DNA of 64,000 bases from Escherichia phage UB. Below, piece by piece: positions 6,898-64,000 of this stretch (its first letter is position 1; the number at the start of each line of letters is the position of its first letter). The notes below the pieces were generated by a model. It was not told the origin of the DNA. It was given only the letters and a program-made list of their open reading frames with translations, and searched no databases. Position numbers and translations under genes: made by a program. Location of the stretch: sequence record MH383160, one strand, 5' to 3'.

Positions 6898-7436
6898 AAT
6901 TCAACCCCCAATATTTTATCAGCAATTGATATAACCTTATCATTGAATACATTACCAATCTCAATCCTTATATACATAGCAGGTGGAATCTTTCCTTGTA
7001 GTGAATAATATGTTTGTATACCTAAGTACTCATTATCTGATAATGAAAATTTGATTCTCTCCATATCAATGTCTGTTACTGGTAAATCAATCATTTCATA
7101 ATGGTAGTCAACGTTTTCAGTGTATATTTTATCGAAGTAATTTGAATAATCACTACTAATATAGATGCTATCATCACGAATAATCACTTTATAATCAGAA
7201 GGTTCAAATTTATCTTTAGAAGAAAAGAATGCATCATCTATCTTCTCTTCTCTTATACCGAATAACATTTTACCATCATATTTTACATCAAGAATACTAC
7301 CTAGTATATTAATGGTACAATGCTCATCAATATTATGACGTAAAGAACGAGTCTTGTATTTTGGGTTAATGAAAATTTTCATTAATTTTATACAAATGTC
7401 AGTAATGCATTTTACATTCTCATTTTCTATGTACAT
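6894..7436 (-). CDS. hypothetical protein
   Basis: ORF track 180 aa; 4-nt overlap coupling. Confidence 0.55.
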   Translation of the reverse strand: MYIENENVKCITDICIKLMKIFINPKYKTRSLRHNIDEHCTINILGSILDVKYDGKMLFGIREEKIDDAFFSSKDKFEPSDYKVIIRDDSIYISSDYSNYFDKIYTENVDYHYEMIDLPVTDIDMERIKFSLSDNEYLGIQTYYSLQGKIPPAMYIRIEIGNVFNDKVISIADKILGVEL

Positions 7437-7914
7437 TAAAAGCCCTCTTTAATTCTTTTACATTTTTAATGAATACTTTCATTGCAGAAATCTCAAAAGA
7501 TAATGTATTAAATTTGCAGTACTTTTTAAAGTACGACATTATGAATAACATTTTGAGTTCTTTTTCTGTGTAAATTAAACTATTTTGAAAGTAACTTTCT
7601 TCTGATAAATCATCAAGAAACGGATATAAAACTCCATTTGTTCTCAAGAACATGATACCTTCACTCCATGATCTAAATGAAAGGTAATCAGTCTTACCAC
7701 ATTCATATAAGGAGTTTATCATTCCATCAATCATTAAGGAGAACTCAATACTGTATCCTAATCTTTCACACTTGTATCTCTTATCTTCTTTCTTTGTAAT
7801 TACGAAGTGATGACCCAGTGAGTCTTTGTTATCGAAAATGAAATCAACTGTCTCTAAACACTCCTTAGCGAACTTCATAGTTTCTCTGTACTTTCGGTTC
7901 ATTAGTCTCTCCAA
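7420..7914 (-). CDS. FQ-motif family protein (hypothetical)
   Basis: ORF track 164 aa; motif EESYFQNSLIY. Confidence 0.65.
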   Translation of the reverse strand: MERLMNRKYRETMKFAKECLETVDFIFDNKDSLGHHFVITKKEDKRYKCERLGYSIEFSLMIDGMINSLYECGKTDYLSFRSWSEGIMFLRTNGVLYPFLDDLSEESYFQNSLIYTEKELKMLFIMSYFKKYCKFNTLSFEISAMKVFIKNVKELKRAFNVHRK

Positions 7915-8315
7915 ACTTTACCAGGGAAGTGTTTCTCGTAGTACTCATCATCACTTAACATATAATCAGGAGTTTCTACTTCTATGGTTTTGAAGATTGT
8001 TTCTGGAATGTGTGTGACTTTATTGGGTTGTACTTTATGTTCGCGTAAAACCTTCTGTATCGCTCCTAGACGTTGTAAATCGATACATGTAGGAAAGACT
8101 AAGCTGTACTGAAATAGCTCGTCGGGGGTCATTATAGACACATCCTTAGCTTGTTTGATTTTATTGTTGGCATCAATGAATATATCAAATCCTTGTACAG
8201 CATTATAGCTTACATAGGTTGTTTTATTTTTGTCAATAGGAGCACTTAAACGATATCCATATACCCCGTGTTGGTCAACAATGCATCGTTGCATAATTTT
8301 AATCATTTCGAACAT
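7902..8315 (-). CDS. FQ-motif family protein (hypothetical)
   Basis: ORF track 137 aa; motif PDELFQYSLVF. Confidence 0.65.
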   Translation of the reverse strand: MFEMIKIMQRCIVDQHGVYGYRLSAPIDKNKTTYVSYNAVQGFDIFIDANNKIKQAKDVSIMTPDELFQYSLVFPTCIDLQRLGAIQKVLREHKVQPNKVTHIPETIFKTIEVETPDYMLSDDEYYEKHFPGKVWRD

Positions 8316-26781: not shown

Positions 26782-27177
26782 CTAGTACTGCACTGTTCTA
26801 ATGAAAGTACCTTTACTCATGGATTTAAGCTTATGAACCTCTTCCTGCATACCCTTAATTAACCCTAAAGGTATAGGTAAATCATGTACTAAGCTGTACT
26901 GAAAGTATTCTTCTTCAGATAAAGTACTAACATCTGGGACTCCAATTTTAGTTAGATAATCTTGATGTGTTGACCAATAAATTATATCTTCAGTACTATT
27001 GTACTCCCCATATACTGAACAATATTGATGAATATCTTTCCTGTACCCTTGAGCAATAAAGAACTTATCTACTGCATTACCAGCATTAATAGAATTCACT
27101 TCTATTGTCACAGTACTTGAGCTTGTATAACTCTTAATATTATCAGTACTCAATAATGTGTTCTTCATAATCACCAT
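26782..27177 (-). CDS. FQ-motif family protein (hypothetical)
   Basis: ORF track 131 aa; motif EEEYFQYSLVHD. Confidence 0.65.
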   Translation of the reverse strand: MVIMKNTLLSTDNIKSYTSSSTVTIEVNSINAGNAVDKFFIAQGYRKDIHQYCSVYGEYNSTEDIIYWSTHQDYLTKIGVPDVSTLSEEEYFQYSLVHDLPIPLGLIKGMQEEVHKLKSMSKGTFIRTVQY

Positions 27178-57995: not shown

Positions 57996-59132
57996 ATGTT
58001 ACCTTTTGCAAGAATGATGAATTATGGGAACGTAGCACCAGATAAACTAAAAATACGTGATATTGTTGCAGGTGCTAATTCATTATTACTAATAACAGAG
58101 GATAATGAATTATGGGTGCGTGGTAATAATGCGTATGGCAAATTAGGTATAGGAACTGATACTATAGTGAATGTAACCGAGTGGACTAAAGTTAGAGATG
58201 ATGTTAAGTTTGCTTGTGCTAGTAATTTAGTATGCGTTGTATTAACTGTAGATAATAAAATTTTATACTGTGGTGATGAATGGTTTGAATCTGGTGGTTC
58301 GACAAGTTCTAAAGTTGTTACATGGAAAGATGTTACGACACAATTTAGTGCAGTGAATCTAAGCACAGTTCGTGAAATGAAAATAACTTATTATTGTGTA
58401 GGATTACTTACAAATGATAATAGATTATATGCTAAAGGATATGATAATAACCAATCATTTGGTGGTTCAACAAGCAAAGTTAATGCTGTATTAGTTGCGT
58501 CAAATGTTTCAAAATTCTACACTTCTCTATCTGGTACTATATATTCTAGTACTACTGGTGGTTACTATCGCTGTGGTATAAGCAATACTGGAGCATTGGG
58601 TACTAGCACAAATTTAACTTCTTATAATTTGTACTCTGCTCCCGAATTTGCATCCGAATGTGCAGTTGGTATGTCAACATTAAACTCTGGTATATTATAT
58701 TATGATACTAATGGTATCACTAGATATGTTATAGCAGGTCAAAATAGAAATTATCAACTAGGTAATTCTTCTTCAAATACCACAAACGTATATTCGTATA
58801 CAGAATTAACCGGATATAGAGGCAGGTTTAGGGATTTGTGGAGTGATATGAATAACTCTGTTCTTTCTTTTGCTATAAGCACAGATGGCAATACTTTATA
58901 TTATGCTGGTACTAACAATACACTATCTTCTGGTGATCCTGGTGTTGAATATTCATCTGCATTCAAAGAAGTACCACACGGGTTTAATGATATAACAAAG
59001 GCGGCATCGTTAGCATATCTATCTATAGTGCAAGATTCAACGGGATGGTATTATTCTGGAAATGCAACTACGTTATATGGTTTGCCATCGAGTGGTGAAT
59101 TTATACCATTACCATTACCAACATTAATTTAA
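57996..59132 (+). CDS. RCC1-like repeat (beta-propeller) protein, MLPFARM paralog family
   Basis: ORF trimmed to ATG 57996 after AAGGAGG; repeats GNNAYGKLGIG, GYDNNQSFGG, GQNRNYQLGN. Confidence 0.6.
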   Translation: MLPFARMMNYGNVAPDKLKIRDIVAGANSLLLITEDNELWVRGNNAYGKLGIGTDTIVNVTEWTKVRDDVKFACASNLVCVVLTVDNKILYCGDEWFESGGSTSSKVVTWKDVTTQFSAVNLSTVREMKITYYCVGLLTNDNRLYAKGYDNNQSFGGSTSKVNAVLVASNVSKFYTSLSGTIYSSTTGGYYRCGISNTGALGTSTNLTSYNLYSAPEFASECAVGMSTLNSGILYYDTNGITRYVIAGQNRNYQLGNSSSNTTNVYSYTELTGYRGRFRDLWSDMNNSVLSFAISTDGNTLYYAGTNNTLSSGDPGVEYSSAFKEVPHGFNDITKAASLAYLSIVQDSTGWYYSGNATTLYGLPSSGEFIPLPLPTLI

Positions 59133-59204: not shown

Positions 59205-60314
59205 ATGTTACCTTTTGGAAGAATGGTTAAGTACGGAAATATTGTACCTGGTCCTAAAAATATAATTAAAGTTGGTGCTTCTACACAAGGTCAATTCTTA
59301 TTGACTGATTCACATGATTTATATTACATAGGTAGAAATCAAGGTGGTGAATCTGGAAATGGTAATACCAACACGGTATCTTCATGGATATTAGTAAGTG
59401 CAGATGTTTCTAATTTTTTCGTGGGTGATCGTACACTTGTTATTATTAAAAATGATAATACTATATGGACATCAGGTCAAACGTACTGGTTCTCATCTTC
59501 TACAACTACTTCTTACAGTACTGTATTAGTTGAAAGGACTAGTTGGTTTACCACGGCTATACCAGTAAGTGAGATTGCTAATATTGTATGTACAAATGGT
59601 TTAATATTTGTACTTAGCACTAATTCAGTACTCTATGGTGCAGGAGATAATGGATATCGTGGTTCTTTGGGTATTGGTTCATCATCAATTTATACATTAA
59701 CTCAATGTGCTACGAACGTTCGTAAAGTAATGACAAATGCGAATGATAGTATGTATCTTACATTAGATAATAAGCTATATAGTTCTGGATGGAATAGTAG
59801 TGGGCAGCATGGTACGGGGAACCAAACACAAATTAATACTTGGGGATTACGTAGTTCTGGTGTAATCGATGCAGCAATTGGTGGTAATGCATTAAATTAC
59901 TATAATGGTACATCATATTTCGTATGTGGTCAAACTCCAAACTTTCTTAGTTCAGGTACGACTACATTCCGTGCAGTTCCTGTAAGTACTTTGCCTAATA
60001 GTTCTCCGTTGTTTATGACGAATTCACCTGCATTAAATACTGCTACACAAATGGTAATTACTAGTACATATCAGAAGGGTGTTGGGGCGAACCGTGGTTT
60101 GGGATTAAACAATTCTCAAACTGGTGCTATATATAGTGCTACCAATTTACAATTACCCGTTGAAGTTAGTGAGATTAGGGATGTTCTTTTTAGTGATGGT
60201 TTGACATCGATATTAACCAAAAATGGAGATGTGTATAGTACTGGATCGTATTACGCCATTCCAGGTGCAATCGAGGATGTTGCAGTCTTTACTAAAATTG
60301 ATTTACCAAAATAA
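59205..60314 (+). CDS. RCC1-like repeat protein, MLPFGRM paralog family
   Basis: ORF trimmed to ATG 59205; repeats GDNGYRGSLGIG, GWNSSGQHGTG. Confidence 0.6.
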   Translation: MLPFGRMVKYGNIVPGPKNIIKVGASTQGQFLLTDSHDLYYIGRNQGGESGNGNTNTVSSWILVSADVSNFFVGDRTLVIIKNDNTIWTSGQTYWFSSSTTTSYSTVLVERTSWFTTAIPVSEIANIVCTNGLIFVLSTNSVLYGAGDNGYRGSLGIGSSSIYTLTQCATNVRKVMTNANDSMYLTLDNKLYSSGWNSSGQHGTGNQTQINTWGLRSSGVIDAAIGGNALNYYNGTSYFVCGQTPNFLSSGTTTFRAVPVSTLPNSSPLFMTNSPALNTATQMVITSTYQKGVGANRGLGLNNSQTGAIYSATNLQLPVEVSEIRDVLFSDGLTSILTKNGDVYSTGSYYAIPGAIEDVAVFTKIDLPK

Positions 60315-60320
60315 CATAAT

Positions 60321-60350
60321 GCCAGTACTTGATACTGGCTTTTATTTTTT
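60321..60350 (+). terminator. intrinsic terminator
   Basis: GCCAGTA-CTTGA-TACTGGC then TTTTATTTTTT. Confidence 0.6.
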
Positions 60351-60352
60351 GA

Positions 60353-60368
60353 TTAAATATAGTATAAT
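60353..60368 (+). promoter_or_regulatory. -10-only promoter-like element
   Basis: TTAAATATAGTATAAT before RBS. Confidence 0.35.
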
Positions 60369-60384
60369 GAATAAAGGAGGAATT

Positions 60385-61572
60385 ATGTTACCTTTTGCAA
60401 GAATGGTTAAGTACGGGAATAAAGTCATTCCATATGTTCCCAATTTTACTAAATTAGTCACCCCAGCAGTTGGTTATTCATTTACATGCACAATGCTGCT
60501 GGATGTAAATGGATCAGTGTGGGCTATGGGTCTTCAGAATGGTGGAATTTTTGGGTTAGGGAATACTACACAGGTTACTGAATGGACAAAAATATATAGC
60601 AATGTTAAAGATTTTTGGTGCAGTACAGGGAATGGGTTTTGTCTAATACGAACAAATGATGATAGATTCTTTTATAGTGGTTTAGATAAATGGCTAGGTA
60701 ATAATACAACAAATACTGTAACAACATTCACTGAATGTACGAGTTATTTTACACAATTTGGTATTTCAAAAATCAAAGAGATATATGTAGGTCTTGATTA
60801 TGCTTTGATTTTAGGTACTGATAATAGTTTATATTTGTTAGGTGATAATAAAAATTCAAAGTTTGGTTTAAACACTGCATCATATTTTAATAAATTTACA
60901 TTTTTAGTCGATAATGTTAAAAAATTCTGTTCATCCATCACACCCTCTAACTGGATTATTAAACTAGATAATACAATATGGCGTACTGGGACAACATCTC
61001 ATGGAACGTTGGGAAATGGAGTTCAAAACACATATATATTTCCTTGGGTTCAATATAAGGGCACACCTGTTACCGAAGCTATAGACGTTTTTTGTAGTGC
61101 GAGTTATATTGGTATTATAACTAAAGGTACACCAGAATCATGTCCTATGTATACAATGGGCTATCAAGCTGATGGTCAGTTGGGTAATAATACTACAGCA
61201 GGGGGTTATAAATTAACGCCAACGTTATCGAAAACCGTTCCAGATGATAGTGAATTCATTCGAATTGAAAACATCTCATCCCGTGGCCTGGTATATTATA
61301 GCTCTGGTAAAATTTATAGTACTGGTTATAATAACAATGGTCAATTGGCAAATAACAGTACAATTAATTCTGGTTCATTTGTTGAAGCAATTTTACCTGA
61401 TGGTGTTAATTTTAAGAAAAGTGAATCACTTGTAGCTGGGAACGATGCAACGTTGTATATGTACATTAATAATAAATTATACTACGCGGGGAAATCCCCT
61501 GATAATATTTCAGCAAGTAGTTCATCTGTCATGAAAGAGTTCCCACTTCCAACAATCAATGCCAGTACTTGA
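60385..61572 (+). CDS. RCC1-like repeat protein, MLPFARM paralog family
   Basis: ORF-track ORF 60223..61572 trimmed to ATG 60385 after AAAGGAGG; repeats GLQNGGIFGLGN, GYQADGQLGNN, GYNNNGQLANN. Confidence 0.6.
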   Translation: MLPFARMVKYGNKVIPYVPNFTKLVTPAVGYSFTCTMLLDVNGSVWAMGLQNGGIFGLGNTTQVTEWTKIYSNVKDFWCSTGNGFCLIRTNDDRFFYSGLDKWLGNNTTNTVTTFTECTSYFTQFGISKIKEIYVGLDYALILGTDNSLYLLGDNKNSKFGLNTASYFNKFTFLVDNVKKFCSSITPSNWIIKLDNTIWRTGTTSHGTLGNGVQNTYIFPWVQYKGTPVTEAIDVFCSASYIGIITKGTPESCPMYTMGYQADGQLGNNTTAGGYKLTPTLSKTVPDDSEFIRIENISSRGLVYYSSGKIYSTGYNNNGQLANNSTINSGSFVEAILPDGVNFKKSESLVAGNDATLYMYINNKLYYAGKSPDNISASSSSVMKEFPLPTINAST

Positions 61573-61590
61573 TACTGGTATTCTTATTTG
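61561..61590 (+). terminator. intrinsic terminator
   Basis: CCAGTA-CTTGA-TACTGG then T-rich run; overlaps stop codon. Confidence 0.55.
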
Positions 61591-61592
61591 TA

Positions 61593-61608
61593 TTAAATAT
61601 AGTATAAT
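61593..61608 (+). promoter_or_regulatory. -10-only promoter-like element
   Basis: TTAAATATAGTATAAT before RBS. Confidence 0.35.
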
Positions 61609-61624
61609 GAATAAAGGAGGAATT

Positions 61625-62812
61625 ATGTTACCTTTTGCAAGAATGATGAATTATGGGAATATTGTGCCTGTACCACTACAAATTAAGAAAATAATACCAA
61701 CTGATACTGATGTTGTTGTACTTTATACTGATGGTCAACTATACGCACGAGGAAATAATGCTTTTGGGAAGTTTGGAAGAGGCAACAACACTGCATTAAG
61801 AACATGGACATTAATTAGAGAAAACGTTAACGATTTCTGGATCACACAAGGAACTTTGTTAGTTCAAGATAATGACTTAAATTATTACTATTGTGGATAT
61901 GGTGATCATATTGGTTTACCAAGTAGTACTACTACGTTTTTAAGTTATAACCAATATATTGAAAATTTGTTCACGCAAAGTTCAAGTACTTCAATTAAAC
62001 AGATGTATGCAGGTACTACGTGGTTTACTTTCTTAATGGATAATAATACAATATGGAGTACTGGTTGGAGTGGGGGTAAACAATTCGCTGATGGTACGGG
62101 TAGTACTCAACAAATAACAGATGGATCATTTGTAAAAGCTGTCACGCCTGATGTTGATATTGCACAAATACAGTCAACAAATAACTGTGTAATGTTTTTT
62201 GATACACAAAATAATTTATATATTGGTGGTGGTACGTCAGGTATAAGTACTAGTACTACATGGACTTCATATAATGAATATACTTTATATAAACCAAGTA
62301 CAACATACACAAAAACGTTACAATACACTGGATGCTCAAGTGGTGCAGTCAGTGCTTTGGTTGAGAATCCAAGTACTGGTGCACGTCAGTTTCTAGTTGG
62401 TGGTTTAGCGAATAATGGTGCATGGGGCAACAATACCACAACCAGTTCAGCACTTGCTGTATTAGGGAGCAATAGTACGACATTACCACCCGGTACTTTG
62501 TATTCAATTCATACTGGATACCCAACACAATCTAGTATACTAGTTACGAGTACTGGTGTATATGCAACTGGTTTAAATGCGAGTAGTTATGCTGGCTCTT
62601 TGGGTGTAGGTTCTAATGTTACTATTGGTAAATTTACTGCATGTCCAATGCCTACACAAATAACATATTCTATGTATGATAAAATAAAAATATATAGAGG
62701 TTCATATCGTACATTTCTAACTGATATGAAAAATATATATTCAACCGGAACTTATGATGATGGTGGTCCTAGTACAACTAGATATGTACTAGATACACCC
62801 CGTCAATTATAA
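61625..62812 (+). CDS. RCC1-like repeat protein, MLPFARM paralog family
   Basis: ORF-track ORF trimmed to ATG 61625; repeat GNNAFGKFGRGN. Confidence 0.6.
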   Translation: MLPFARMMNYGNIVPVPLQIKKIIPTDTDVVVLYTDGQLYARGNNAFGKFGRGNNTALRTWTLIRENVNDFWITQGTLLVQDNDLNYYYCGYGDHIGLPSSTTTFLSYNQYIENLFTQSSSTSIKQMYAGTTWFTFLMDNNTIWSTGWSGGKQFADGTGSTQQITDGSFVKAVTPDVDIAQIQSTNNCVMFFDTQNNLYIGGGTSGISTSTTWTSYNEYTLYKPSTTYTKTLQYTGCSSGAVSALVENPSTGARQFLVGGLANNGAWGNNTTTSSALAVLGSNSTTLPPGTLYSIHTGYPTQSSILVTSTGVYATGLNASSYAGSLGVGSNVTIGKFTACPMPTQITYSMYDKIKIYRGSYRTFLTDMKNIYSTGTYDDGGPSTTRYVLDTPRQL

Positions 62813-62818
62813 TATAAT

Positions 62819-62849
62819 AGCCAGTACTCAGTACTGGCTTTCTTATTTG
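62819..62849 (+). terminator. intrinsic terminator
   Basis: 9-bp stem AGCCAGTAC-TCA-GTACTGGCT then T-rich run. Confidence 0.6.
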
Positions 62850-62851
62850 TA

Positions 62852-62867
62852 TTAAATATAGTATAAT
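62852..62867 (+). promoter_or_regulatory. -10-only promoter-like element
   Basis: TTAAATATAGTATAAT before RBS. Confidence 0.35.
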
Positions 62868-62883
62868 GAATAAAGGAGGAAGT

Positions 62884-63621
62884 ATGTTACCTTTTGGAAG
62901 AATGGTAAAGTACGGGAATAAAATTGAATATAAGCCAGATGGTGAACAATTAATCACGACAATAGGAACAACACAATTTACAGTTCCTGCTGGCGTTACC
63001 GAAATATCAGTATGTGTTATTTCGCCGGGTGGTCAACGTGGTGCTGGTGGCGGCTTATCGTGGCGTAATAATATTCCGGTTACTAGTGGTGAGTACTTAA
63101 GTGTTTCTCTTACACATCCCAACACTACTACACCAGTTGAAAACGGTTTATATCGTGGAACTGAAAAACTATGTGTTAGCTTCACTGGTGAATATAGGGT
63201 TGGTGGACTAGGTGGGAAAGCTGCTAACGCTATTAATGATGGTGGTGGTAATGGGGGCAACGCTGGTGTAAGTGGTGGTGCAGTCATTGGTGGTGGTGCT
63301 GGTGGCTACACTGGTAAAGGTGGTAACGGAGATGCAATCACTGGTGAAAATGGTGCTGGCGGCGGCGGTGGTGGTGGTGCATTCTATAATACCTCGTTCA
63401 TTGGTACGGGTGGTGGTACTGGTATCATTGTTCAAGGTGCTAATGGTATTGGCGGTAGATACGATGGTTCATATAATGGTGGTGCTGGTAGTGGTGGTGC
63501 TGGTAAGATGTATGGTGGTGGTGGTAGTATATGGGATAATTTTTCTTATACGGCTGCTGGTGGTGGTGCTGTGCGAATAATATGGGGACGTGGGAGATAT
63601 TATCCTAACAATTCAGTCTAA
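62884..63621 (+). CDS. MLPFGRM-family protein with glycine-rich C-terminal region
   Basis: ORF trimmed to ATG 62884; shared N-terminus MLPFGRMVKYGN; C-terminal 150 aa about half Gly (GGGAGGYTGKGGNGD..., GGGGGGGAF...). Confidence 0.55.
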   Translation: MLPFGRMVKYGNKIEYKPDGEQLITTIGTTQFTVPAGVTEISVCVISPGGQRGAGGGLSWRNNIPVTSGEYLSVSLTHPNTTTPVENGLYRGTEKLCVSFTGEYRVGGLGGKAANAINDGGGNGGNAGVSGGAVIGGGAGGYTGKGGNGDAITGENGAGGGGGGGAFYNTSFIGTGGGTGIIVQGANGIGGRYDGSYNGGAGSGGAGKMYGGGGSIWDNFSYTAAGGGAVRIIWGRGRYYPNNSV

Positions 63622-63628
63622 AATATAG

Positions 63629-63658
63629 GCCAGTACTTGATACTGGCTTTCTTATTTG
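63629..63658 (+). terminator. intrinsic terminator
   Basis: GCCAGTA-CTTGA-TACTGGC then T-rich run. Confidence 0.6.
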
Positions 63659-63693: not shown

Positions 63694-64000
63694 ATGTTAC
63701 CTTTTGCAAGAATGGTTAAGTACGGGAATATAGCACCAGTTCCAGTAGTTCCTACAATAAAAGATTTTAAGATTGGCTTTTCACATGAAGTGTTATTGGA
63801 CAGTGCAGGTGATGCATGGGGTATTGGATACAATACAGATGGGCAGTTAGGCTTTTTGGATGCAAATACCAATTCACTAGGTGTGTGGTCTAAGATATAT
63901 ACTGATGTTCGATTAATTGGAGTTACTGCTAGATATACAGTGGTAGTTACTAATAATAATAGAATCCTTTACGCAGGAAATAACTTAATTTCTAGTACTA
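63694..64000 (+). CDS. RCC1-like repeat protein, MLPFARM paralog family (partial, continues beyond window end)
   Basis: ATG 63694 after AAGGAGGG; MLPFARMVKYGN...GYNTDGQLGF; no stop in window so absent from ORF track. Confidence 0.5.
   Translation, partial: MLPFARMVKYGNIAPVPVVPTIKDFKIGFSHEVLLDSAGDAWGIGYNTDGQLGFLDANTNSLGVWSKIYTDVRLIGVTARYTVVVTNNNRILYAGNNLISST

Follow-up and report, generated by a model that had tools for sequence, protein, structure and literature searches.

At the end of a 64,000-nucleotide (nt) stretch of DNA from Escherichia phage UB (sequence record MH383160; hereafter the window), one gene at positions 62884–63621 starts like the RCC1-like propeller genes that surround it but encodes a body that is rich in glycine and unrelated to theirs. 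What is this protein, and what does it mean that it shares its first residues with propellers? The original prediction saw a fibre-like protein in which a glycine-rich region had replaced the propeller. By fold and family, the protein is an additional member of the PF21722-type glycine-rich "brush" modules of phage fibres, and its N-terminal residues recur in front of unrelated proteins in other RaK2-like jumbo phages. On balance, we favour the view that it is an accessory, plug-in adhesin of the virion surface, made up of a docking tag and a swappable binding head.

The glycine-rich gene and its module

The window belongs to an Asteriusvirus jumbo coliphage, and the gene was found in 17 phage records in total (96–99.9% DNA identity). 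Its 756-nt open reading frame (ORF) region is 99.9% identical to Escherichia phages 121Q and SP27 and 96–99.5% identical to 15 other Asteriusvirus jumbo coliphages. The counterpart in 121Q is gp243, a "hypothetical protein" of 245 residues within the tandem array gp234–gp248, which is labelled "putative DNA condensation protein (RCC1-like)". Translation from the ATG at 62884 to the TAA stop codon at 63619–63621 yields 245 residues with the N-terminus MLPFGRMVKYGN. The mechanically called ORF opens 18 nt further upstream; we place the start at 62884 because a Shine–Dalgarno sequence, AAGGAGG (62873–62879, plus strand), lies 4 nt before this ATG and because the same start is annotated in 121Q, G17, BF17 and others.

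Glycine accounts for 70 of the 245 residues, and 51 of these 70 are encoded by GGT. The share rises to 44% (51 of 115) in residues 101–215 and amounts to 37% (56 of 150) in the last 150 residues, so that the initial description of the C-terminal ~150 residues as about half glycine was overstated; the glycine string quoted there comprises residues 136–167.

We modelled the protein with AlphaFold2 from a 42-sequence alignment and obtained a mean predicted local distance difference test score (pLDDT) of 92.3 and a predicted template modelling score of 0.89, with low confidence for the first 10 residues. Behind the N-terminal 12 residues, a short linker leads into one half of a TNF-like β-sandwich (residues 13–100; 62920–63183, plus strand) with the motifs FTVPAGVTEISV and GGGLSWRNNIPV. 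The glycine-rich domain (residues 101–215; 63184–63528, plus strand) contains about ten glycine-rich motifs, and residues 216–245 with the stop codon (63529–63621, plus strand) contribute strands that rejoin the β-sandwich and bear the family signature AVRIIWGRGRYYP. Strands are predicted for residues 20–100 and 215–234. Residues ~136–214 show almost no DSSP helix or strand despite pLDDT values of 87–98, as would be expected of a polyglycine-II/polyproline-II (PPII) lattice. The predicted structure thus has the fold of the PF21722-type family, a β-sandwich combined with a lattice of extended glycine-rich segments. A Foldseek search is consistent with the fold of phage fibre-tip or "brush" domains, and in this respect the fibre-like character first suggested for the protein is borne out by its body. 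In BFVD, 89 viral models matched at E ≤ 1e-3; the majority bear the name "glycine-rich domain-containing protein", and the set includes some giant-virus "collagen-like" proteins. A collagen-like identity, which had been raised for the window protein, was rejected: its longest G-X-Y run is four triplets, the DNA contains no long tandem repeat, and the model has a polyglycine-type lattice on a β-sandwich.

Sequence homologues are numerous. We found 199 proteins at E ≤ 1e-3, mostly of ~250 residues and from phage-like contigs, many of which carry PF21722 ("Gly_rich_2"). The 42-sequence alignment is collinear from residue ~13–20 to the C-terminus, with the conserved motifs F.VP.GVT.I, GGGLSWRN.IPV.PGE, INDGGGNGG, GGGAGGY.G.GG and AVRIIWG..R.FP; GGGAGGY, W234, G235 and P241 are invariant, and 13 of the 42 aligned homologues reach the PF21722 model (best E 3.8e-13). 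A profile search of 1.84 billion cluster representatives recovered 5,741 members, including 1,166 with E ≤ 1e-30. The ~240-residue module is often C-terminal in, or repeated within, proteins of 500–5,000 residues, as expected for a fibre-tip module. End-to-end alignment with a very large family, together with the fold, indicates that the body is one complete, widespread and portable module and not a low-complexity tail. The domain swap proposed originally therefore stands, but the unit exchanged is residues ~13–245 rather than just the ~150 C-terminal ones, and the N-terminal part may be its anchor. For the window protein, neither sequence nor profile searches retrieved a meaningful PDB match, and the matching PHROG carries no assigned function.

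Several proteins with related domains are known. In the cyanophage fibre protein Pam3 gp24, the module is the receptor-binding tip, with 12 glycine-rich motifs, a four-layer lattice and variable polar residues at the distal tips, and its authors also noted a resemblance to S16 gp38 and ALK (PMC9608196). PPII bundles of this type have been noted in Pam3, Bxb1 gp33/gp29, S16 gp38 and ALK (PMC13243192), and "polyglycine-rich or brush domains" are regarded as antireceptors in siphophage hubs (PMC13243795).

In Pam3 gp24 (PDB 7YPX/7YFW), a long α-helical bundle at the N-terminus brings about trimerisation of the fibre and its docking to the baseplate, and the product of the neighbouring gene, gp25, is required as a chaperone. 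By contrast, the glycine-rich protein (18–19% identity) has a 12-residue tag, no helical domain and an RCC1-like paralogue as its next gene. The sandwich begins after only 12–19 residues, for which the model shows no helix, and the window, 121Q and the other Asteriusviruses that we checked all have an RCC1-like paralogue, not a chaperone gene, downstream. We therefore rejected identity with a Pam3-type tail fibre. The Bxb1 gp33 "tail wing brush" and gp29 spike subdomain (PDB 9D93) differ in belonging to a siphophage of a Gram-positive-like host, in their position on tail-tip wings and in having no MLPF tag. Bxb1 gp33 is dispensable and is held on the virion via gp30, not directly on the tail (PMC12646305), a mode of attachment that is not comparable with the tag by sequence. 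Salmonella phage S16/T2-type gp38 (PDB 6F45) is a polyglycine-II "sandwich" whose glycine motifs are split by variable receptor-binding loops, and it is a separate small adhesin, plugged onto the fibre tip by its N-terminal part. The extracellular glycine-rich domain of ALK/LTK (PDB 7LIR, 7LRZ, 7LS0 and 7NX3) belongs to a metazoan receptor ectodomain that binds cytokine ligands, and we found no sequence-level match between it and the window protein. The PF21722 relatives, which come from phages, bacteria and giant viruses, are alike in end-to-end alignment and motifs, but most are the C-terminal part of long proteins or start with another N-terminal peptide.

Three features might suggest that the ORF is an error in the sequencing or assembly of low-complexity DNA, or that the GGT-rich stretch is non-coding: its biased composition (45% G+C in the gene versus 34% in the window, with 51 GGT codons), the ORFs that overlap it in other frames, and the annotation of a different frame in one genome. 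However, the ORF is open in eight independently sequenced genomes, that is, in seven besides the window; six of these further copies are exactly 738 nt long, and the copy in phAPEC6 carries an in-frame 3-nt deletion. Among the seven copies of equal length, 23 amino acid positions vary, comprising only 1 of the 70 glycines versus 22 of the 175 other residues. The single variable glycine is position 5 of the tag, which is a variable tag position, and several of the variable non-glycine positions fall between glycine motifs. Pairwise ratios of non-synonymous to synonymous substitution rates are 0.1–0.85, mostly 0.3–0.85, and rest on few substitutions. Tandem repeats are few and short (≤ 49 nt by TRF), with two TGG runs and a 15-nt unit present 1.9 times. 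Since hundreds of full-length homologues, a confidently predicted fold and a homologue detected as a protein in phage CBB (see below) also argue against an error, the chance of one is negligible. We thus rejected a sequencing or assembly artefact or repeat collapse, the alternative that the original prediction had left standing; the gene occurs in 17 records and is intact in eight genomes, and its tandem repeats are few and short.

The N-terminal tag and the shared cassette

Six genes in the window, starting at 57996, 59205, 60385, 61625, 62884 and 63694, begin with MLPF[AG]RM[VM][KN]YGN. In the glycine-rich gene, this tag occupies codons 1–12 (62884–62919, plus strand) and is common to the RCC1-like neighbours. 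A scan that allowed three mismatches found its 36 nt four times in the window, where none is expected by chance; the copies at 59205, 60385 and 63694 have no more than two mismatches. Although the RCC1-like genes of the window, including the truncated one at 63694, have only 23–35% pairwise identity, nine of the 12 tag residues are the same in all of them. When the six gene starts are aligned, the similarity between the glycine-rich gene and its neighbours ends directly after codon 12. The conserved N-terminal attachment module of ~40 residues that was proposed first is thus indeed conserved but only 12 residues long, and attachment is the function that we would assign to it. The four complete neighbours match RCC1-like Pfam models with E-values of 3.7e-15 to 3.8e-28, whereas the glycine-rich protein matches none; with a likeness that stops after codon 12, it was rejected as a member of the RCC1 family.

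The shared region also extends ~65 nt upstream of the ATG, where all six gene starts have a common cassette of terminator, promoter-like box and Shine–Dalgarno sequence. As originally described, the gene therefore shares its 5′ cassette and N-terminus with its propeller relatives and has an unrelated body. The first cassette element (62819–62839, plus strand) is a terminator-like hairpin, AGCCAGTACTCAGTACTGGCT followed by TTCTTATTT, which ends the upstream RCC1-like gene. The hairpin, GCCAGTACT..loop..AGTACTGGC with a T-run, has a folding energy of −13.3 kcal/mol (z −4.07). It also precedes the genes at 59205, 60385, 61625 and 63694 and is annotated as a terminator in G17; terminator-like sites number 11 versus 2.7 expected. 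The copy at 63627–63649 (plus strand) both ends the glycine-rich gene and opens the cassette of the 63694 gene. The second element is the box TTAAATATAGTATAATGAATAA (62852–62873, plus strand), which contains TAAATA/TATAAT elements similar to T4-type late promoters and is present in six copies in the window, with none expected; each copy sits 11–12 nt upstream of an MLPF start. From its sequence and position, we suggest that this box acts as a promoter. A σ70 promoter in the cassette was not supported, as a scan gave 37 sites versus 32 expected and just 9 nt separate TTGTAT from TATAAT. A T4-late-like reading of TAAATA would amount to a resemblance to the ATAAATA motif reported for structural genes of CBB.

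Each gene of the Asteriusvirus array may thus form its own transcription unit with hairpin terminator, promoter-like box and Shine–Dalgarno sequence, and would probably be expressed late. The identical ~100 nt of cassette plus tag would at the same time place a patch of homology at every gene boundary. Since this patch supplies homology for recombination, payloads could be shuffled, gained and lost between close relatives. Consistent with such shuffling, no database record spans ≥ 80% of the 6.1-kb array (best coverage 65%, in JP4), and pieces of the array occur in 36 records, only 17 of which contain the glycine-rich gene; Ecwhy_1, A4 and ph0011 are examples of phages without it. In 121Q, the glycine-rich gene and its downstream neighbour of the window are separated by an extra gene, gp242.

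The tag is not confined to this array. The motif MLPFx[R/I/P]xxxY[G/A]N heads ~50 ORFs in at least nine genomes of RaK2-like jumbo phages, in each case directly after a Shine–Dalgarno sequence. When we scanned IMG/VR with a degenerate DNA pattern of the tag, 21 loci matched, nearly all of them in jumbo phage contigs of 348–378 kb, those of 121Q and CBB included, with two chance-like types of match elsewhere. The peptide is kept over at least four genera and their uncultivated relatives. After removal of the tag, the bodies fall into at least nine unrelated BLAST clusters: RCC1, Kelch, RCC1 plus Kelch, Laminin_G_3 (concanavalin-like; three groups), glycine-rich, and four without a Pfam match. 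The RCC1 plus Kelch payload is a double propeller of 673 residues found in several IMG/VR contigs, and the four clusters without a Pfam match have 168–223 residues.

The most informative relative is phage CBB, a Pectobacterium jumbo phage of the genus Mimasvirus (KU574722), which has 11 tagged genes (CBB_144, 247, 536, 537 and 548–554). Their bodies are Kelch, Laminin_G_3 or glycine-rich, or have no assigned family. CBB_144 (254 residues; identified by tblastn) begins MLPFSPLIVYGNKI / MLPFSPLIVYGNKIAPY and has 38% identity over the first 130 residues (E 3e-17). It combines the same tag with the same module at a similar length, but its C-terminal end has diverged and is without the VRIIWG signature. 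In CBB, the tag codons differ synonymously at invariant residues (CCT/CCA/CCG, TTT/TTC and TAT/TAC), and the DNA upstream of the tagged genes is unrelated, with no shared cassette. Together, these two properties indicate that selection acts on the peptide and not on the DNA.

This bears on the possibility that the shared N-terminus has no role in the protein at all and merely hitch-hikes with the ~100-nt cassette or serves translation initiation. Within Asteriusvirus, such an explanation would have some appeal, given that the tag codons are nearly identical in DNA and continuous with the cassette and that the array is a recombinational mosaic. However, the 11 CBB genes encode the same peptide with different synonymous codons and without a shared cassette, either in tight, operon-like spacing or at unlinked loci, and across the genera the peptide persists while the bodies behind it change from cluster to cluster. 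The CBB data largely refute this explanation, and we consider it very improbable.

Other observations concern the N-termini of related proteins. Just upstream of CBB_554, at ~27066–27140 of the KU574722 stretch (minus strand), CBB has an unannotated relic in which MLPFPQLVV is fused out of frame to ...GGAVRIIYGDDRSFPNTLTNNQ*. The sequence GGAVRIIYGDDRSFPNTLTNNQ is the C-terminal signature of the glycine-rich family, and the relic lies at the edge of the CBB tag cluster and of the terminal repeat. It looks like a second glycine-rich cartridge that was internally deleted, which would mean that such a cartridge once also stood inside the CBB tag cluster, in line with the exchange of payloads seen in the Asteriusvirus array. 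Stand-alone homologues of ~250 residues from elsewhere, including gp19 of Salmonella phage PVP-SE1, share a different N-terminal motif, M[LIF]E[LM][LM].., and one metagenomic homologue begins with MLPFPIM. These sequences suggest that lineage-specific N-terminal peptides ahead of the module may be a general pattern. An AlphaFold2 model built from five RCC1-like paralogues of the window was too poor to place the tag relative to the propeller (pLDDT 58). In the literature searched, coverage of which was incomplete, we found no mention of the MLPF tag, which is weak evidence of novelty. Nor did these searches turn up a description of a link between the tag and those virion proteins that only hairy phages have, or a structure of the hairs of RaK2-like phages at high resolution.

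Virion association and a possible role as adhesin

Proteins with the tag are found in phage particles. CBB_144 was identified in purified CBB virions by mass spectrometry (MS) with five unique peptides and 34% coverage and is recorded as "structural protein" (PMC5259590). In all, 9 of the 11 tagged CBB proteins were detected in virions by MS and are annotated as structural. The authors of that study listed six MS-detected virion proteins without a counterpart in phage GAP32 and proposed them as candidates for the whiskers of CBB (PMC5259590); all six bear the tag. Six tagged RCC1-like proteins were likewise detected in virions of phAPEC6 (PMC7247149), and MS also identified the RCC1-like gp001 of GAP32 as a structural protein. 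At three rings of the tail sheath and at hexamer centres, hair-like fibres or decoration sites have been described (PMC7247149).

In the adhesin that we propose, residues 1–12 (MLPFGRMVKYGN) would be a docking tag that plugs non-covalently into a common acceptor on the virion. As this acceptor, the fibres of hair or whisker type on 121Q, phAPEC6 and CBB, or the decoration sites on their tail sheath and capsid, would be the most plausible candidates. Leucine at position 2 blocks methionine aminopeptidase, and Met1 is therefore likely kept; in the mature N-terminus, MLPF may thus serve as a hydrophobic plug and YGN as a turn behind it. We infer that the tag is retained in the mature virion and docks there. 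Residues ~13–245, with their TNF-like β-sandwich and polyglycine-type lattice, would bind a structure on the host surface through non-glycine residues at the loop tips, because the non-glycine positions vary between orthologues while the glycines stay fixed. Conserved N-terminal anchors with exchanged receptor-binding heads are a familiar principle in phages.

A different function for the tag is suggested by phage T4, whose internal-protein loci also combine a short conserved N-terminal peptide and conserved promoter cassettes with variable payloads in a hyperplastic region. By this analogy in genetic logic, the tag would be a capsid-targeting sequence, and the payloads would be packaged in the prohead with the DNA, possibly cleaved, and injected as internal or ejected proteins. 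RaK2-like phages are distant T4 relatives with an inner body, and the authors of the phAPEC6 study named RCC1-like proteins as candidates for it (PMC7247149). Virion MS is blind to the difference between inside and outside, and several CBB tags have L-x-E at positions 7–9, like the T4 prohead-protease site. However, the T4 sequence that sends proteins into the head is cleaved at a conserved L/I-x-E, whereas this motif is not conserved at the end of the tag among the Asteriusvirus, CBB and IMG/VR copies compared. Position 9 may be E, K, N, Q, A, V, H, Y or D and is K or N in all Asteriusvirus copies, so that there is no common cleavage motif. Also, every payload that can be identified has a binding fold of extracellular type (lectin-like, propeller or fibre-tip glycine-rich), and in every phage example with a solved structure, the glycine-rich module is exposed at the tip of a tail fibre, spike or wing. 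Finally, the tagged set coincides with the virion proteins that set the hairy CBB apart from GAP32. We therefore regard transport into the head as unlikely.

The protein could also be a virion component that is not an adhesin, such as a structural spacer or cap, or an intracellular protein carried over into virions. Contexts of the homologues are varied, with nucleotide-metabolism genes in CBB and terminase/portal or muramidase genes elsewhere, host binding is deduced from variation and fold, and ALK-type glycine-rich domains bind protein ligands and not cell envelopes. Against this, five peptides and 34% coverage in purified virions, as obtained for CBB_144, are no trace signal; the variation among orthologues spares the glycine scaffold and affects several sites between the glycine motifs, as in receptor-binding tips; and the co-tagged payloads are lectin-like. 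A role of this kind seems to us about as improbable as targeting to the capsid.

A number of points weigh against a plug-in adhesin, too. We infer both the virion location of the glycine-rich protein and the binding partner of its tag. The wrong reading frame was annotated at the phAPEC6 locus (see below), which left the real protein out of the only Asteriusvirus virion proteome, and the RCC1-like proteins of phAPEC6 were detected with one to four peptides each. CBB_144 is flanked by nrdD and nrdG and has neither an RCC1 array nor a cassette next to it, and stand-alone homologues in other phages adjoin head or lysis genes, not tail-fibre genes. The protein is without an N-terminal helical trimerisation or docking domain, and no chaperone-like gene follows. 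It matches no Pfam family at E ≤ 1 and no NCBIfam model above threshold, so that its family membership rests on homologues and fold. Last, the whiskers are ~119 nm long, and globular proteins of 25–45 kDa cannot build them by themselves.

Two gene contexts are worth describing individually. On a ~150-kb contig of a phiTE/rV5-like phage, the genes for terminase, portal, protease, decoration protein and capsid begin three genes downstream of the stand-alone homologue. On another contig (216 kb), the gene immediately before the homologue encodes a muramidase that carries a peptidoglycan-binding domain. Neither setting points clearly to a function.

A broader proposal can also be made, to which we give somewhat less than even chances: the 12-residue plug (MLPFxRxxxYGN) would be universal and constitute a display system, in which any binding domain that acquires the tag loads onto a common acceptor on hairs or decoration sites. 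We hold it equally tentatively that the glycine-rich gene is one cartridge of a modular, evolvable array of multiple adhesins that governs the range of host surfaces recognised. The glycine-rich domain is of a known kind; the seemingly undescribed part is the short tag that joins unrelated binding domains. Images exist of the hairs of 121Q, phAPEC6 and CBB, but these appendages still have no assigned gene; the tag provides a short list of candidate whisker genes together with a concrete docking motif. If the tag alone suffices for loading, it would offer a handle for decorating jumbo phage particles with foreign proteins.

The labels of the array also need to be reconsidered. RCC1-like proteins of these phages have been connected with "DNA condensation" by analogy with eukaryotic chromatin proteins. 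An array member of fibre-tip type, and a single tag over varied payloads, recast the array as a set of exchangeable binding heads displayed on the virion, and the annotation "DNA condensation protein" is probably wrong for the whole array.

Gene calls at the locus and the rest of the window

As noted at the outset of this work, the GGT-rich DNA gives rise to spurious ORFs. A Val-rich ORF of 102 residues in the +1 frame (63272–63580, plus strand) and two ORFs on the minus strand (63208–63435 and 63033–63287) lie within the glycine-rich gene. The equivalent of the Val-rich ORF is annotated in phAPEC6 (MK817115) as gp004 (7716–8018) instead of the real gene. The true phAPEC6 gene is intact, encodes 244 residues at 7325–8059 of the MK817115 stretch and encloses gp004. 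The phAPEC6 annotation of the glycine-rich locus is certainly wrong and is corrected here. The CMSTMSU copy (MH494197, 151–903) contains a pair of compensating frameshifts and appears in the record as two fragments, one of them with a Mycobacterium PE-PGRS-type note; the frameshifts are probably sequencing errors, because the record is flagged UNVERIFIED_ORG.

The four complete RCC1-like propeller genes upstream, each with the tag and a match to RCC1-like Pfam models, are located at 57996–59132, 59205–60314, 60385–61572 and 61625–62812 (all plus strand). The next tag-bearing RCC1-like gene (63694–64000, plus strand) is cut by the end of the window. For two of the upstream genes, the mechanical ORFs (60223–61572 and 61559–62812) overshoot the true MLPF starts at 60385 and 61625 by 54 and 22 codons, respectively. 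The apparent overlaps of these two ORFs with the genes before them are false and arise because the cassette happens to be open in frame.

Upstream of the array, the window contains only dense minus-strand arrays of small genes, and we found no tRNA genes there. Within positions 1–57900, one family of 27 minus-strand paralogues (63–90 residues, with one of 269) spreads over 12–33 kb. Other minus-strand families have 10 members (106–131 residues) and 8 members (147–163 residues), and three small families lie at 53.5–57.5 kb. These tandem families fit growth of the genome by tandem duplication in this group of phages.

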